Source of the DNA: a bacterium
GTDB taxonomy: Bacteria; Patescibacteriota; Minisyncoccia; UBA6257; UBA9933
Reading direction: 5' to 3'
Length of the DNA: 64,000 nucleotides
Assembly (NCBI GenBank): GCA_021796335.1
Contig: JAJYHZ010000001.1
Span: 80,360-144,359 of the forward strand
A program made the position numbers and the translations under genes. The notes under the pieces are model-generated. The model was given only the letters and a program-made list of their open reading frames with translations. It searched no databases and was not told the origin of the DNA. Shown piece by piece: positions 25,875-50,582 of the stretch (position 1 is its first letter; each line of letters opens with the position of its first letter).

Positions 25875-25964
25875 GGAGGCGTCGCATAGTGGCCGAGTGC
25901 GCTCGCTTGGAAAGCGGGTAAGGGGTAAAACCCTTCGTGAGTTCGAATCTCACCGCCTCCGCCA
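25875..25964 (+). tRNA. tRNA-Ser (anticodon GGA), CCA encoded
   Basis: acceptor GGAGGCG/CGCCTCC, anticodon loop TTGGAAA, long variable arm, T-loop TTCGAAT, 3' GCCA. Confidence 0.9.
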
Positions 25965-27461
25965 AGTTTTACATTCAGCGAAATTGAAAGATGTTGCCTC
26001 GGCGCAAAGCGCCTCGGCATGGTATTTTTCCGCAATTTTGAAGGCATTTTTGAAATCCAAAACCAAAGTGCGGTCGGCAATGCGGAAGTTCGAACCAATC
26101 TTTTTGAGAAAATCCCGAATCCTTTCGGGATTTTCTTGTTGAGCGTATTTTTCGGCTTGGTTGGCATCTTTTAGAAAGGCAATGGCAAGTTCGAACCGAT
26201 TATTGCTCTTGCGCCCAAAAGCGGTAATTTTTTCTTCCAAATTTTTTTTGGCGAGAATGAGCTTGTGCTTTTTAGCGGTATATTCCGCTTGCGACAAGTT
26301 GCCGTCCAGTTGTAAATCAAGCAAGCGATCAAGTTTTGTTTCTATTTCTACAAGCTCATTTCTCGCTTTTTGGGCGAAAGAGCTTTCCGCTTGGGCAATT
26401 TTCATTTTTTCGTTTTCAAAATAGTTGATTGAAGCGTTTGCCCAAGCGGAAGACAAAGAAACTTTTTTGATTTCCTCTTTTATTTGAGAAGTGATGGCGT
26501 CCTCTCTCACATATCTCTGCGAACAAGGATTCTTCCGTTTGGTACACCGCAAGTAGTTATGACCTTTTTGCGTTTCGGTGGTAATGAAACAACCACATTC
26601 TCCACAACGGAAAAATCCTCTAAAAATGTATGGTTTGAGTTTTGGCGATTTCGGTTTGCTCTTGTTCGCCATTACTTCTTGAACGGAATCAAAAAGTTTC
26701 TTTGTGATAATCGGTTCATGCTTTCCGTCATACAATTCGCCGTTATATTCAATCATTCCGTAATAGATTTTATTCTTGAGCATATACTGATAATTTGAGA
26801 CGGAAAGCATTTTGCCTTTCTTGCCAACCAAGCCCAAGGAATTGATAATCTTTCGGATTTGAGCGAGGGGGTATTCGCCAGTCGCATACATTTCAAAAGC
26901 CCGCTTGATATACTTTGCTTTTTCCTTATCAACAATAATTTTTCTTTGGTTTTTATCGTTCACATAACCCAGTGGCGCCCAAGCGGGCCATATTCCATTT
27001 CGCAATTTCTGGCGAATACCCCTCTTTATATTTTCCGAAAGATTATCCACATAATATTTTGATTGCCCAAAAGCGATAGACAACATAAATTTTCCTTGCG
27101 GTGTCGGATCAAACCAAAAAGTAGGAAATTTTAGCGTGGTTATTTTTCCAGTATCCACCAAGTAAATTATTCTCCCGCCGTCTATGGAATTGCGAGCCAA
27201 TCTATCGGGGTGCCACGCTAAAATTCCCTCGGCTTCATTTTTCTCTATGCTTGCCACCATTTCGTTAAAAATCTCTCGCCCCGGCTCTTTGGCGGTTTTA
27301 CTTTCCACAAATTCACGGACGATATTTAGTCCCTCTTTTTTGGCATATTCCCGCAACTCAAACATTTGTGCCTCAATACTCAAAACCTGCCTTTCGGGTT
27401 CGTCCGTGGATTTGCGGGCATAGAGAAAAATCTTTTTGGTTTGTAAATTTATATTATCCAT
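25950..27461 (-). CDS. large serine recombinase (resolvase/invertase catalytic domain + recombinase domain + zinc ribbon)
   Basis: N-terminal YARKSTDE...QVLSIEAQ catalytic-Ser region, central recombinase domain, CGECGCF...LRCTKRK zinc ribbon; 503 aa; last 5 codons overlap tRNA-Ser. Confidence 0.85.
   Translation of the reverse strand: MDNINLQTKKIFLYARKSTDEPERQVLSIEAQMFELREYAKKEGLNIVREFVESKTAKEPGREIFNEMVASIEKNEAEGILAWHPDRLARNSIDGGRIIYLVDTGKITTLKFPTFWFDPTPQGKFMLSIAFGQSKYYVDNLSENIKRGIRQKLRNGIWPAWAPLGYVNDKNQRKIIVDKEKAKYIKRAFEMYATGEYPLAQIRKIINSLGLVGKKGKMLSVSNYQYMLKNKIYYGMIEYNGELYDGKHEPIITKKLFDSVQEVMANKSKPKSPKLKPYIFRGFFRCGECGCFITTETQKGHNYLRCTKRKNPCSQRYVREDAITSQIKEEIKKVSLSSAWANASINYFENEKMKIAQAESSFAQKARNELVEIETKLDRLLDLQLDGNLSQAEYTAKKHKLILAKKNLEEKITAFGRKSNNRFELAIAFLKDANQAEKYAQQENPERIRDFLKKIGSNFRIADRTLVLDFKNAFKIAEKYHAEALCAEATSFNFAECKTWRRR
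25962..26091 (+). repeat. R1 copy A (130 bp), abutting the tRNA-Ser 3' end; encodes the recombinase C-terminal about 43 aa
   Basis: 100% identical to the reverse complement of 27577..27706. Confidence 0.9.
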
Positions 27462-27576: not shown

Positions 27577-27706
27577 GAACTTCCGCATTGCCGACCGCAC
27601 TTTGGTTTTGGATTTCAAAAATGCCTTCAAAATTGCGGAAAAATACCATGCCGAGGCGCTTTGCGCCGAGGCAACATCTTTCAATTTCGCTGAATGTAAA
27701 ACTTGG
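27577..27706 (-). repeat. R1 copy B (inverted, 130 bp), contiguous with inverted R2
   Basis: exact reverse complement of 25962..26091; read on + strand it re-encodes ...FRIADRTLVLDFKNAFKIAEKYHAEALCAEATSFNFAECKTWR, continuing into R2 as CFLDEVRTFFEQNSE*. Confidence 0.9.
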
Positions 27707-27865
27707 CGGTGTTTTTTGGACGAAGTTCGAACATTTTTTGAGCAAAACTCCGAATGATTGCGCGCTTCGCGCGCAAAACCGAAACGCTCGGGCGGGTAAA
27801 AAGGAAGGGGGTTGGGGGGAAGGAATTTTTGCCCGCCCTCGCTTTCCGCCGCCGCCGAATTTCGT
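27703..27865 (-). repeat. R2 copy (inverted, 163 bp, GC-rich) carrying a dyad-symmetric site GGGCGGGCAAAAA..(poly-C/mirror)..TTTTTACCCGCCC
   Basis: exact reverse complement of 29843..30005. Confidence 0.9.
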
Positions 27866-27975
27866 ATTTTGCTTTGCAAAATGCGCCGCCAAAATTGGAG
27901 TTGTGTTTGCCCCGCCCGCCCGTGCGCACACAACATTTTTTCTCCCTTTGTTTTGCTTGCTAAACATCATTTTAT

Positions 27976-28026
27976 TTGGTAGTATAAAAATACAGATAAT
28001 AACCTTGTATACTACAATACTACCAA
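27976..28026 (+). promoter_or_regulatory. candidate promoter/operator for the XRE gene: 10-bp inverted repeat TTGGTAGTAT-N31-ATACTACCAA overlapping TTGCTA-17-TAGTAT
   Basis: read from sequence just upstream of ATG 28039. Confidence 0.4.
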
Positions 28027-28038
28027 AACTTTATTTAT

Positions 28039-28245
28039 ATGACAAGTGGAAAAACAATAAGTGAAAATATAAAAAGATTACGCAATAAACTTGGTCTAAC
28101 GCAAGACGATTTAGCCAAGAAAGCGGATATTAAATACACTACGCTTATGAAGGTCGAAAGTGGAACAGTTAATAAGCCGAGCGTTCAAACTATGGCGAAT
28201 ATCGCCAAAGCGTTGGGCGTTTCGATTGAGGATTTAATAAAATAA
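28039..28245 (+). CDS. XRE-family (Cro/C1-type) helix-turn-helix transcriptional regulator
   Basis: IKRLRNKLGLTQDDLAKKADIKYTTLMKVESG HTH_3 signature; 68 aa. Confidence 0.85.
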   Translation: MTSGKTISENIKRLRNKLGLTQDDLAKKADIKYTTLMKVESGTVNKPSVQTMANIAKALGVSIEDLIK

Positions 28246-28249
28246 AACT

Positions 28250-28660
28250 ATGGAAAACGAAACAAACAATAAGGCACACGATTTTATTAAAGGAGAAGTT
28301 TTGAAAATGGAGCGCAATTCATTTTTCGTGCGCATGATTGCTGCCGCTTTAGCTTATGCGGGTATAAGCTATTGGCTTAATGCAATTCGTGCCGATGCAT
28401 CTTTGTGGTTTGTTTGGGTTTTGATCATTATTCAATTTGCCCTGTATTTTTCTATTTTTATTATGGGTTATAGGCGTGCAATAGTTTCAGGATTCAACAA
28501 AAATTTGAGTTTAATAGTTTTTATAGCTCTTGCCATTCTTGGAAGAGTAAATGATTGGGAATTGGCGGTTATTCCTCTAACAGTTATCATAATGCTAATT
28601 ATTTCGGCAAAAGCTAAAAATGTTTCTGATAACAGCAAACATTTATTACCACAAAAATAA
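28250..28660 (+). CDS. hypothetical 4-TM membrane protein (136 aa)
   Basis: starts 5 nt after the XRE stop; four hydrophobic helices. Confidence 0.5.
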   Translation: MENETNNKAHDFIKGEVLKMERNSFFVRMIAAALAYAGISYWLNAIRADASLWFVWVLIIIQFALYFSIFIMGYRRAIVSGFNKNLSLIVFIALAILGRVNDWELAVIPLTVIIMLIISAKAKNVSDNSKHLLPQK

Positions 28661-28671
28661 TTTTAAAAAAT

Positions 28672-29382
28672 ATGGGAATTTTTAATTGGTTGTCTAGCAA
28701 TAAAACACAATCCACTAATAAGGACAAAATTACCGCCAAGCAAGTTTTAGATTTTTCTAAAACTTACGAGGAATTAAAACCATATTTTGCTCTCTTTGTG
28801 CATTTCTTTAAATCTATATTGGATAGTGAAAATGAAATTGAGCAGGCGGTAAAAGAAATTCAGTCCAAAACACAGCAAAATCTAAAAGAAGACCAGTTAT
28901 TCAAGGAGTTATGGATTTTACGCTATGTTTGTTTGCATATATGGTTTTTCGATCTCAAACCACCAAAAAATAAAACAGAATTATCCGATGAACTTTTGGT
29001 TATCAATAGCGCGCTTAAAAGTGTTTTGAAAGAAAAGAATAAATTAGATTATTTACCTTGGCTTAAAAATGGTCTGCCTGAATTTGCTGACGGTGAATTA
29101 AACTTTAATAGTCTGAAAAATTTTAGAAAAAATTTTTCAGACAAACTGACAGATAAAATCCCGCATATTGCGTTTGATTGCACAGAGGGGCGATTGGGCG
29201 GAGAATTACACGATTTTGTTATTGAGTTGGTCATGACAACAATTCAAGAAGATCAAAAAGTTTTCAGTATGAGCGATAATAAGACACTAACAGAGGAAGA
29301 AACAAAAAATATCAAAAATGTAATTGCAGAAATGAGCGACGCTAGACATAAAGCGGCGGAAGATTTTATAAATTCTCTATGA
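28672..29382 (+). CDS. hypothetical protein (236 aa), no recognisable domain
   Basis: intact ORF co-oriented in the cargo cassette. Confidence 0.5.
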   Translation: MGIFNWLSSNKTQSTNKDKITAKQVLDFSKTYEELKPYFALFVHFFKSILDSENEIEQAVKEIQSKTQQNLKEDQLFKELWILRYVCLHIWFFDLKPPKNKTELSDELLVINSALKSVLKEKNKLDYLPWLKNGLPEFADGELNFNSLKNFRKNFSDKLTDKIPHIAFDCTEGRLGGELHDFVIELVMTTIQEDQKVFSMSDNKTLTEEETKNIKNVIAEMSDARHKAAEDFINSL

Positions 29383-29816
29383 ATGATTATTTTCAAATCA
29401 TTTTTTCTGCTCTAACTTTACTCGGTGTCGGCGGCATTGTCGGCGGGTATATAACGTTTTTGCTTGATAAAAAGAAAGAGTTGGAATTTAAGCAATTAGA
29501 GCAGAAAGAAAAAAGATATAAATCCTGCCTTTTATACATGGATGTTTATTTTGAGCCGAAAAATATCAAATATCTTTCAAGTCGCCAACCAGATATTGAT
29601 AACGCCCAAGATGTCATAGAATATTTAAAAGCTGAATATCACGAAATGTTGCTTTATGCTTCAAAGGATGTAATTTTATCAGTAAAGGCATTTATCAATG
29701 ATCCGACCAGAGAAAATTTTTTGAAGACTGTTTTGAACATGAGGCAGGATTTATGGGTTAAGAAAAATGATTTAGAATTAGATAGTATTCGGATTGATTT
29801 TAAAAGAAAGAATTAA
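29379..29816 (+). CDS. hypothetical protein with N-terminal TM anchor (145 aa)
   Basis: ATGA overlap with the upstream gene; perfect 9-bp hairpin terminator GTGCCAGTT-TTC-AACTGGCAC follows at 29826..29848. Confidence 0.5.
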   Translation: MNDYFQIIFSALTLLGVGGIVGGYITFLLDKKKELEFKQLEQKEKRYKSCLLYMDVYFEPKNIKYLSSRQPDIDNAQDVIEYLKAEYHEMLLYASKDVILSVKAFINDPTRENFLKTVLNMRQDLWVKKNDLELDSIRIDFKRKN

Positions 29817-29842: not shown

Positions 29843-30005
29843 ACGAAATTCGGCGGCGGCGGAAAGCGAGGGCGGGCAAAAATTCCTTCCCCCCAACCCC
29901 CTTCCTTTTTACCCGCCCGAGCGTTTCGGTTTTGCGCGCGAAGCGCGCAATCATTCGGAGTTTTGCTCAAAAAATGTTCGAACTTCGTCCAAAAAACACC
30001 GCCAA
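29843..30005 (+). repeat. R2 copy (+ orientation, 163 bp) ending in core-like CACCGCCAA
   Basis: exact inverted match to 27703..27865. Confidence 0.9.
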
Positions 30006-30107: not shown

Positions 30108-30506
30108 ATGAACGACGAAATTCAAAAGATAATAAAGAAGAGCACTTTTAGAGTTGAAGAAGGCAGATTTGTGTATGCTCAAGTTTTAAATGCTCCGAGC
30201 GTAGACAAACACTTCATGGTAAGTAAAGATGCCGATGAAGTCACCGTAGTTACAAAAGAAGAGAATCTGCCAGAATTAGATATCAAAGAACGCAATAAAG
30301 ATTTTTATCGCTTGATTGCGCTAAATGTATCAATACCGTTCTACTCTGTTGGATTCCTAGCAACCATCAGCCAAGCAATAGCTGAACAAGGCATGAATAT
30401 TCTCATCGTATCTACCTATTCGAAGGATTATATTATGGTTAAGGATGATAAGTTGGAAAAAGCAAAGTCGGTCTTGATGGGACTCGGTTTTAAAGAAATC
30501 GGTTAG
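30108..30506 (+). CDS. ACT domain-containing protein
   Basis: C-terminal beta-alpha-beta-beta-alpha-beta-like segment GFLATISQAIAEQGMNILIVSTYSKDYIMV typical of ACT regulatory domains. Confidence 0.45.
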   Translation: MNDEIQKIIKKSTFRVEEGRFVYAQVLNAPSVDKHFMVSKDADEVTVVTKEENLPELDIKERNKDFYRLIALNVSIPFYSVGFLATISQAIAEQGMNILIVSTYSKDYIMVKDDKLEKAKSVLMGLGFKEIG

Positions 30507-30627: not shown

Positions 30628-31020
30628 TCAACACGATAGAATGAAAACGCCCGTACTGGTTCTAACTTCGGGACATCGCCTCCGCCAATTTTTACTTTTT
30701 GTGAAATCGTAAGGAATTGCCTCGGCGCAAAGCGCCTCGGCATGATATTTTTCCGCAATTTTGAAGGCATTTTTGAAATCCAAAACCAAAGTGCGGTTGG
30801 TAATGCGGAAGTTTGAAAAACACCGCAGAATGAGATTTTGAGCGTACACACGCTTAATTTCTTTTTTATCTATCACGTTTTCCACAAGTTCTAACCTCCT
30901 GTGAATATGATTTATTTCTTTTGATATTTTTCCCATCACTAAAATTAACTTTTCAAGCAAGCACTGAATATTTTGTTTTGAAACGTAAATGGCTGTATAA
31001 TAAAAACAAATGTATAGCAA
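30628..31020 (-). pseudogene. remnant ORF containing a recombinase C-terminal fragment (RTLVLDFKNAFKIAEKYHAEALCAEA)
   Basis: 130-aa ORF whose middle matches the last about 40 aa of the serine recombinase; no catalytic domain. Confidence 0.5.
30676..30820 (+). repeat. diverged third R1 copy preceded by the 12-nt tRNA-Ser 3' duplicate CGCCTCCGCCAA (attR-like or remnant)
   Basis: about 98-bp near-identical core (30716..30813) to R1, with 2 mismatches; tRNA-proximal 40 bp diverged. Confidence 0.8.
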
Positions 31021-46900: not shown

Positions 46901-47189
46901 TAATCCTATGATAACTGTTGTAAAACGGAAGCGCGGATAAATCGGCAAATTTCGTGTTGGCCGGTTGTCCGCCACGAGGCGGATTTTTGTTTCTAAAAGA
47001 AACAACCCCGAGTAAAATCAAAGGGTTAATCCAAAATCAAAAACTGAAACGATAGTATTGACAGAATCATTGAAAATTTAATATTTATTCCATGCATAAC
47101 ATAAAATGTATGTGTGGAAGTCAACAATCATAACAAAATACAAATAAGAATTTTGTTTTCTGGGTAAAATAATCCCAAAAGAGGATTTC

Positions 47190-50365
<3,176 letters not shown>

Positions 50366-50467
50366 AAAATTTTCTTTTGGGTCTTTTACCCGGAAAGCAA
50401 AATTCTTATTTGTTTAGGTTTATCCAATACATAATTTATTATGCTGTTGGATTAAAATTTTCGTTTA

Positions 50468-50582
50468 CCGGTGTTTAACTCGGGTGTGGCCCACTGCTTC
50501 CCATTTCGAACAGAATAGTGAAAGCGCTTGAGCCTCATGATACTAACTGCTTCGGCGGTTGGGAAAGTAGGGTACGCCGGTA
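50468..50582 (+). rRNA. 5S ribosomal RNA
   Basis: CCCATTTCGAACAGAATAGTGAAA...GGGAAAGTAGG 5S-like blocks, about 115 nt, about 100 nt after the 23S. Confidence 0.8.

Follow-up and report, generated by a model that had tools for sequence, protein, structure and literature searches.

Within a 64,000-nucleotide stretch of contig JAJYHZ010000001.1 from a patescibacterial genome (assembly GCA_021796335.1, positions 80,360 to 144,359; hereafter the window), four tightly packed genes at 28039-29816 very probably form the accessory cassette of a ~4-kb large serine recombinase (LSR) element, which sits at a tRNA-Ser gene and has a dual-attP, inverted-repeat architecture. The best explanation of the locus as a whole, to which we give a probability of about one half, is that an LSR element with a swappable cargo bay carries a membrane-acting defence module. 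What is new is that an integrative element carrying defence genes has an unusual flip-flop layout with dual attP sites and an uncharacterised cargo system; the LSR backbone itself is of a known kind. A first-pass annotation of the operon, made from the sequence of the window, had singled out the four genes, placed them on a mobile element and proposed an anti-phage or toxin-antitoxin-like role. No other feature of the locus is as unusual as the combination of inverted repeats with an internal attP, which that annotation did not mention.

The recombinase element and its repeats

The LSR gene (25950-27461, minus strand, 503 aa) ends in a tRNA-Ser(gga) gene (25875-25964, plus strand), the latter recognised by ARAGORN, Rfam, its sequence and junction alignment. 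The LSR product matches Resolvase (1.5e-20), Recombinase (7.8e-17) and Zn_ribbon_recom (1.6e-09) in Pfam as well as the integrase family phrog_95 (4e-80). The 3′ end of the tRNA gene (…CGCCTCCGCCA) makes up that half of attL which derives from attB. The stop codon of the LSR gene falls within it, so that this region of the recombinase gene comes from the tRNA. Self-comparison revealed two pairs of inverted repeats, both perfect and sharing a common boundary. The A pair brackets the LSR gene, whilst the B pair brackets the four-gene operon together with its promoter. The outer arm of repeat A (25959-26091, plus strand, 133 nt) contains the last ~45 codons of the LSR gene and opens with the crossover region of attL, the core CCGCCAA (25959-25965). 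The inner arm (27577-27709, minus strand), ~115 nt upstream of where the LSR gene starts, shows 100% complementarity to 25959-26091. Repeat B is GC-rich and hairpin-rich; its left arm (27703-27865, plus strand, 163 nt) opens the cargo bay and its right arm (29843-30005, minus strand), 100% complementary to 27703-27865, carries the core CCGCCAA at 29999-30005, which is attR. At the junction of A and B there is an intact internal attP-like site (27680-27730, minus strand, core TTGGCGG at 27703-27709) that is inverted with respect to both attL and attR.

The three junctions were aligned. Site 1 (tRNA|A) reads tRNA…cgcctCCGCCAAgttttac and aligns as …tctcaccgcctCCGCCAAgttttacattc; site 2 (B|A), given as its reverse complement, reads …aaaacaCCGCCAAgttttac (aligned as …tccaaaaaacaCCGCCAAgttttacattc); and site 3 (B|flank) reads …aaaacaCCGCCAAtagttttgg (aligned as …tccaaaaaacaCCGCCAAtagttttgg). 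The reverse complement of site 2 is composed of the left half of site 3 and the right half of site 1. Therefore, the element has its attL at site 1, its attR at site 3 and B′·A as its attP. The half-sites behave as those of LSR elements do, with attL and attR sharing only the short core, CCGCCAA, at the CCA end of the tRNA-Ser. If excised, the element would form a circle of ~4.05 kb in which a single ~296-nt inverted-repeat pair, with an attP in each copy, divides the circle into two halves, 1485 nt with the LSR and 1977 nt with the cargo.

Since attP lies within the 3′ end of the LSR gene, the C-terminus of the recombinase changes with the junction. It reads …KTWRRR* at attL, where the stop is taken from the tRNA-Ser 3′ end (25950-25964), and …KTWRCFLDEVRTFFEQNSE* (a variant also written …WRCFLDEVRTFFEQNSE*) where A joins B (27700-27757), as at the internal attP, in the excised form and in a flipped segment. 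Such a junction-dependent C-terminus could serve as an integration-state-dependent switch. The right-hand B arm, as read on the plus strand, has a stable fold (z = -3.5). Since the B arms are reverse complements of each other, reading outward from within the bay gives the same GC-rich hairpin sequence in both. The GC-rich repeats were also considered as a possible structured RNA or tRNA-like gene, an idea that was dropped, there being no match in Rfam. Beyond attR, a further copy of repeat A (30674-30817, plus strand, 90% identity) is preceded by a 14-nt fragment of a tRNA-Ser 3′ end and is probably the relic attL of an earlier element. This copy lies 670 nt past attR, and an ACT_7-domain gene (30108-30506) stands between the two.

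Sibling elements and the contents of their bays

JGI metagenomes were scanned for relatives of the window LSR, which returned at least 572, and 80 of these loci were fetched for comparison (individual loci are cited below by labels beginning with L). At 90% identity, the window LSR belongs to a cluster with 444 members, annotated as Harrisonbacteria, Shapirobacteria, Pacebacteria or ‘Patescibacteria group’. A tRNA gene abuts the 3′ end of the LSR gene in 53 of the 57 assessable loci; 49 of these tRNAs are tRNA-Ser, with all four anticodons represented, the others being tRNAs for Asp, Trp and Gln. A pair of A-type arms is present in 57/80 loci, and the identity of the A arms is higher within an element (median 98.5%) than between elements (90.2%), indicating that the arms evolve in concert. 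B-type arms bound a bay of 1.8-4.4 kb upstream of the LSR gene. An independent counterpart of the window element is on a 399-kb JGI contig (L003), where a tRNA-Ser(gga) gene is accompanied by an LSR, an XRE regulator and a 236-aa-type protein that are 95%, 87% and 86% identical to those of the window. Both repeat pairs are present there with imperfect arms (A 95%, B 99%). The double inverted-repeat layout was also found in L018, L019 and L021, and its recurrence in independent loci with imperfect arms indicates that it is not an artefact of assembly.

The bay occurs in both orientations. Read in reverse, L018 has the order tRNA-Ser(tga)|A-LSR-A′·B-(cassette inverted)-B′, whilst L019 and L021 have the orientation of the window; L018 and L021 are 100% identical in DNA sequence despite the opposite orientation of their cargo. 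Among the 80 sibling loci, the XRE gene is divergent from the LSR gene in 27 and lies at the far end of the bay, reading towards the LSR gene, in 5. Moreover, the LSR segment itself is flipped relative to the tRNA in L040 (arms 86% identical), and L083 has its cargo in tandem (arms only 80% identical). The canonical reactions of LSRs are attP with attB, or attL with attR in the presence of a recombination directionality factor (RDF). Given these rules and the length and identity of the arms, inversion of the bay most likely proceeds by homologous recombination between the arms. Recombinase-mediated cassette exchange and integron-like capture of the bay were not advanced, as neither reproduces the observed polarity of the arms. 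Other arrangements were also encountered: a multi-bay array of the form A′B-cargo-B′A-LSR-attL with a further XRE gene upstream (L091:1337-6503), and a recombinase segment enclosed by a pair of complete tRNA-Ser(gga) genes that form an inverted repeat (219 nt, 93%) and have no cargo bay in between (L035:4667-6589).

Neither the 236-aa protein (P236) nor the 145-aa protein (P145) of the window operon was found in any of the 80 sibling loci. This, together with the LSR gene beside tRNA-Ser(gga), bears out the first-pass claim that the genes are cargo of a mobile element. Sibling bays with other cargo are likewise headed by an XRE gene, and among those classified individually the commonest content is restriction-modification (R-M) or other defence genes. 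Examples are an EcoRV restriction endonuclease (REase) with a D12 methyltransferase (MTase) and DUF5655 (L047), a D12 MTase with an AAA_15/OLD/Gabija-like ATPase (L031), two MTases with HARE-HTH or NucS-like proteins (L036, L052), a DpnII/MboI-like REase (L048) and a D12 MTase (L109). DpnI, ScaI and R.Pab1 REases and N6_N4 MTases are also among the sibling cargo, the REases having been identified in a joint scan of 51 cargo proteins. The bay of L045 (L045:1818-2705) carries ThsB_TIR, the Pfam family 8xMP (‘octameric membrane protein’) and two zinc-ribbon transmembrane (TM) proteins, and may be a further uncharacterised membrane-effector defence cassette. Other bays hold an ABC transporter (L063), a P-loop protein with a peptidase S51 (L075), a PsbP-like protein (L034) and a P-type ATPase, most likely the 894-aa open reading frame (ORF) of that locus (L058). 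The bay is therefore enriched in defence genes, R-M above all, yet is not exclusively defensive. Since it mostly carries R-M and anti-phage genes, the window operon is a credible, if unproven, defence candidate.

The operon, its controller and its protein families

All four ORFs are on the plus strand. The first encodes an XRE/Cro-C1-type helix-turn-helix (HTH) regulator similar to controller (C) proteins (28039-28245, 68 aa), the second a small polytopic membrane protein, TM136 (28250-28660, 136 aa), the third P236 (28672-29382), a soluble all-alpha protein of seven helices, and the fourth P145 (29379-29816), whose N-terminal TM helix continues into a helical bundle and which has the invariant motif NIKYLSSR. 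TM136 is the variable position of the cassette and P236 its conserved core. The tight packing reported earlier holds for the 11-nt second gap and the 4-nt overlap that follows, with the correction that the first gap is 4 nt and not 5. The second ORF may in fact start at the ATG at 28307, which is preceded by AAGGAG and would give a product of 117 aa. The descriptions of the four products also stood: the 68-aa protein matches Pfam HTH_3 (1.8e-15), and the hydropathy profile of the 136-aa protein shows 3-4 TM segments, that of P145 a single N-terminal one and that of P236 none. A near-perfect 32-nt palindrome (28/32 positions pair) is located within the P236 coding sequence at 29111-29142 and is kept in L013-L021.

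Likewise, the absence of any recognisable domain in the three proteins downstream of the XRE was upheld. They have no significant family in Pfam, PADLOC, PHROGs or NCBIfam, and no nuclease or MTase domain according to Pfam, PADLOC and NCBIfam. When these domain libraries were run on the four proteins and on the partner proteins of related cassettes, matches were limited to XRE and LSR. The best PADLOC matches of the XRE are HTH_VI (1e-11) and the R-M Control_protein (7e-11); those of the rest of the operon have E values of 0.005-0.08, below significance, and none of these proteins significantly matches a component of a PADLOC-DB v2 system (Kiwa, Zorya, Thoeris, Gabija and CBASS effectors included). 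The partner proteins of related cassettes also match no defence system in PADLOC. Sequence-profile searches of the PDB with P236, P145 and a 161-aa partner protein described below returned no match. The remote-homology check proposed in the first-pass annotation, carried out with profiles and predicted structures, thus pointed to no housekeeping family for any of the unknown proteins and to no specific fold.

The operon is preceded by a control region (27866-28038, plus strand) comprising a conserved block in its first ~30 nt, a putative promoter and operator half-sites. The inverted-repeat operator reported previously was recovered as two 10-bp palindrome half-sites, TTGGTAGTAT (27976-27985) and ATACTACCAA (28017-28026), 31 nt apart, with an additional ATACTAC at 28009-28015. 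The promoter that it was said to overlap is only putative on the plus strand (TTGCTA at 27957-27962, a 17-nt spacer and TGgTAGTAT at 27977-27985), being below the threshold of the promoter scan, which reports the mirror-image site on the minus strand. This promoter-like sequence (28017-28045, minus strand, TTGTCA-17-TAGTAT with a TG) is inside the operator palindrome and faces repeat B and the recombinase gene. The palindrome and its flanking promoter-like sequence are kept with the same type of XRE in L003 and L034, the cargo of the latter being unrelated, and both are replaced in L017, where the XRE is only 48% identical. The operator therefore covaries with the type of XRE and not with the cargo, which argues that the palindrome is more than a chance occurrence. 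Since the same XRE and operator stand before unrelated cargo in L034, the two would constitute a generic, portable controller of the bay that follows the logic of a C protein rather than that of a dedicated, cognate antitoxin. A block of ~30 nt just inside the left B arm (27866-27895, ATTTTGCTTTGCAAAATGCGCCGCCAAAA) is kept in the window, L003, L017 and L034 whatever the type of XRE, and holds a further copy of the core CCGCCAA (27886).

P236 has 104 homologues (32-92% identity), mainly in metagenome-assembled genomes (MAGs) of the Candidate Phyla Radiation (CPR) and mainly on contigs of 1-5 kb. A profile search of 1.84 billion cluster representatives showed it to be a closed family with only 47 clusters at 50% identity. 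In its AlphaFold2 model (mean predicted local distance difference test score, pLDDT, 79.8; predicted template modelling score, pTM, 0.77) the seven helices follow a disordered N-terminus, and its invariant residues are concentrated in CTEGRLGGELHDF. An HD-domain reading of the motif ‘ELHDF’ was dropped as no fold matched, and no fold of a catalytic domain was detected. The informative fusions recovered by the profile search are of two kinds only, N-terminal TM domains and one FtsK-like P-loop. Small polytopic membrane domains are fused to the N-terminus of P236 in proteins P0043, P0081, P0082 and P0245, one of these domains corresponding to a 111-aa TM protein encoded upstream of P236 in L017, whilst in P0061 a P236 relative is fused to an FtsK/SpoIIIE P-loop domain.

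For P145 there are 398-458 homologues, and the matches listed, all with an identity of at least 70%, belong to CPR, Omnitrophota, Margulisiibacteriota and even a Methanobacteriaceae MAG. No remote relatives came to light when the P145 profile was used in a second word-index search. In its model (pLDDT 84.1) the TM helix runs into the helical bundle. The two families were found together, with the 4-nt overlap, in every close relative (L013-L021); the co-occurrence proposed as a check in the first-pass annotation is thus real, though the pairing is not obligate. The membrane genes upstream of the pair differ among these loci (products of 136 aa; 188 aa; 111 + 198 aa), and the position of TM136 is taken by other TM proteins in L003 and L016-L021. 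Moreover, in L001-L004, L023 and L024 the gene after P236 encodes not P145 but a soluble protein of 161 aa that has an RNAACH (Rx4H) motif. Loci that lack an LSR can also carry P236 (L001, L005, L006 and L009). For its part, P145 stands alone beside tRNA genes in L110-L112, whereas its neighbours in L113 are a different LSR, a membrane protein with an HExxH motif and a protein of 172 aa. Neither family was found among IMG/VR viral contigs. Rx4H motifs reminiscent of HEPN RNases were seen near P236 or P145 relatives (RNAACH, L003:8742-9224; RNNIVH, L113:1301-2296). The domain libraries gave no HEPN match for these proteins, nor did PADLOC and PDB profiles for the 161-aa partner, whose HEPN reading does not go beyond the motif. 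L017 is another multi-bay array: opposite its P236/P145 cassette, beyond the B arm, is a type III R-M system accompanied by an HTH of its own (L017:3380-6610).

Proposed function, rival explanations and known systems

Lastly, we considered what the cassette might do. Tentatively, and with rather less assurance than for the element itself, we read it as a membrane-acting defence or exclusion module, with P236 as the part that is conserved and docked at the membrane and with an effector, encoded by the downstream gene, that can be exchanged. P236 would dock on the small polytopic membrane protein, as its recurrent natural fusions to membrane domains suggest, and would act as a conserved sensor or adaptor. 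It would work with single-pass P145, whose ectodomain or endodomain, a helical bundle, is extremely conserved, P145 being the exchangeable effector here and the 161-aa RNAACH protein taking that place in L001 and L003. The XRE would autoregulate the promoter overlapped by its predicted operator, in the manner of an R-M controller protein, and thereby time the expression of the membrane module, whose action against phages or other mobile genetic elements would take place at the membrane and be of the abortive-infection or exclusion type. The alternating downstream partners, the membrane fusions, the resemblance of the XRE to controller proteins and the absence of both families from IMG/VR all speak for this proposal. 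A bolder version, which we consider possible but doubtful, is that P236 and an exchangeable partner on a polytopic membrane protein make up an undescribed CPR anti-phage or anti-mobile-element system, carried by an undescribed class of ‘flip-flop’ LSR elements, ~4 kb in size, whose two attP sites are inverted and which shuttle interchangeable defence cassettes between the tRNA-Ser genes of distant Patescibacteria.

Several observations weigh against the overall explanation. An empty attB was sought by way of the flanking ACT gene and none was found, as each of the two ACT-bearing contigs breaks off before the element is complete, L115 at the B arm's inner edge and L013 within the XRE gene. No excised circle was recovered among the contigs, nor was an RDF identified in the element. 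PADLOC provided no link from P236, P145 or the TM protein to a known defence protein, partner proteins included, and fold searches with the P236 and P145 models returned nothing specific, the matches being generic helical bundles. P145 relatives occur without P236 in L110-L114, and a two-protein complex is therefore not obligatory. The ABC transporter, P-type ATPase and peptidase S51 of L063, L058 and L075 are non-defence cargo. Finally, opposite orientations in short-read contigs with perfect arms could reflect the wrong choice of path by the assembler; L083 and L040, with arms of 80% and 86% identity, are exempt from such confusion.

The most serious competitor, although we consider it unlikely, is that the cassette is ordinary adaptive cargo: an accessory membrane module for envelope, transport or host interaction, for example in episymbiont attachment, stress tolerance or ion handling. 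The ABC transporter, P-type ATPase and PsbP-like protein of sibling bays are compatible with this, as are the repeated fusions of P236 to polytopic membrane domains and, according to Pfam and PADLOC, the lack of a nuclease, NTPase or other typical defence domain. However, R-M and defence genes are the commonest content of the individually classified bays, a conserved gene with exchangeable downstream partners is the pattern typical of defence systems, and P145 is extremely conserved across phyla and always at hot spots formed by tRNA genes or mobile genetic elements. The role suggested in the first-pass annotation, anti-phage or toxin-antitoxin-like, fares unevenly: it gains from the defence-rich, XRE-headed slot and loses from the non-defence cargo and from the generic rather than dedicated character of the XRE. 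Either function is unproven and argued through guilt by association only. In the toxin-antitoxin version, which we judge quite improbable, the XRE would be both antitoxin and repressor, and one of the membrane proteins would be a toxin that stabilises the integrated element, as in an addiction module. XRE-type HTH proteins are common antitoxins, that of the window has weak NCBIfam matches to HipB, MqsA and PezA types, small membrane toxins exist, and the arrangement is tight and putatively autoregulated. This version is at odds with the use of the same XRE and operator before unrelated cargo in L034 and with the XREs heading R-M cargo in siblings, where they are C-protein-like. Moreover, three further genes exceed the needs of a type II pair, and the TM gene beside the XRE is the least conserved position of the cassette and does not co-vary with it as a toxin would with its antitoxin.

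It is less probable again that the genes serve the element itself, in the replication, partition, excision directionality or transfer of an excised 4-kb circle. The known LSR RDFs phiC31 gp3 and Bxb1 gp47 are about the size of P236, the element has no RDF identified so far, and P0061 joins a P236 relative to an FtsK/SpoIIIE P-loop. Against such a core function, all 80 sibling elements do without P236 and P145, P236 is also found where there is no LSR (L001, L005, L006, L009), and membrane fusions would be odd for an RDF or Rep protein. An artefactual origin of the repeats and orientation variants, through fold-back chimeras or arbitrary path choice, with the operon being a static island cluster, is very improbable. 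In the window, the arms match each other at 100% identity and exceed the usual k-mer length of assemblers, and many related contigs break at the arms. However, imperfect arms are present in independent assemblies (L003, L040 and L083, as given above, and L058 with 82%), the arms diverge between elements and co-evolve within them, and the A arm preserves the reading frame of the LSR gene. A membrane-acting defence module on a swappable-bay LSR element remains our preferred explanation.

The element shares with known LSR elements and prophages (phiC31, Bxb1, SPbeta SprA, SCCmec CcrAB, Tn4451 TnpX) the three-domain LSR, a short common att core, integration at the 3′ end of a defined gene and cargo beside the recombinase. 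It differs from them in being only ~4 kb long, in targeting tRNA-Ser 3′ ends, in having attP in the 3′ end of the LSR gene, in the second, inverted and intact attP within a ~296-nt inverted repeat, and in having no recognised RDF. Literature searches yielded no description of such LSR/tRNA-Ser elements in CPR/Patescibacteria, nor of the P236 or P145 families. Like P4-like satellites, pipolins and tycheposons, which are defence hot spots on mobile elements, it combines a conserved integration and regulation backbone with one variable, defence-enriched slot and insertion at tRNA genes; in contrast to them, its backbone is a single LSR gene, its slot is invertible and flanked not by core genes but by long inverted repeats, and its hosts are CPR. 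A further parallel is with flip-flop genomes of the yeast 2-micron plasmid or chloroplast type, in which a circle (here inferred) has an inverted-repeat pair that contains the recombinase target and separates two unique halves, inversion isomers are observed and the arms evolve in concert. Unlike these genomes, the element uses a serine integrase whose canonical rules bar attP × attP and is seen mostly in the integrated state. A role of the inverted-repeat layout in amplification is pure speculation. The arrangement also differs from inverton, shufflon and Hin/Gin/Cin switches, in that the whole operon and its promoter lie inside the 163-nt arms, only the C-terminus of the LSR changes, and the enzyme is an LSR rather than a small invertase.

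The cassette in turn resembles C-protein type II R-M systems in having a small XRE HTH gene first and a palindromic predicted operator overlapping its own promoter, and XRE-headed sibling bays do carry REase and MTase genes. The window operon has neither of these, its downstream genes encoding membrane and all-alpha proteins with no known domain; its controller resembles R-M C proteins, but the operon is no R-M system. The likeness of P145 to Csx28, the octameric membrane pore that is accessory to Cas13b, and to other single-pass TM defence effectors is a lead and not a sign of membership. P145 has no PDB profile match to a Csx28-like pore, hhalign against the 8xMP protein gives a probability of 0.3%, and no CRISPR locus is nearby.

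CPR/Patescibacteria make up a large and mostly uncultured share of bacterial diversity whose mobile elements and immunity are little known. With at least 572 LSR relatives in JGI metagenomes, this mini-element is extremely common and appears to be a main vehicle for R-M and other defence genes in CPR. Its single variable bay offers a clean guilt-by-association screen for new defence systems, of which the P236/P145 cassette is the first candidate. The LSR family provides compact serine integrases whose att sites, at tRNA-Ser 3′ ends, can be read directly from sequence. Moreover, the dual inverted attP sites, concerted arms and inversion isomers raise the testable question of what a serine integrase element gains from this layout. 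Elsewhere in the window, an Rfam scan finds no 16S rRNA gene to accompany the 23S and 5S rRNA genes at 47183-50582, so the rRNA operon appears to be unlinked.

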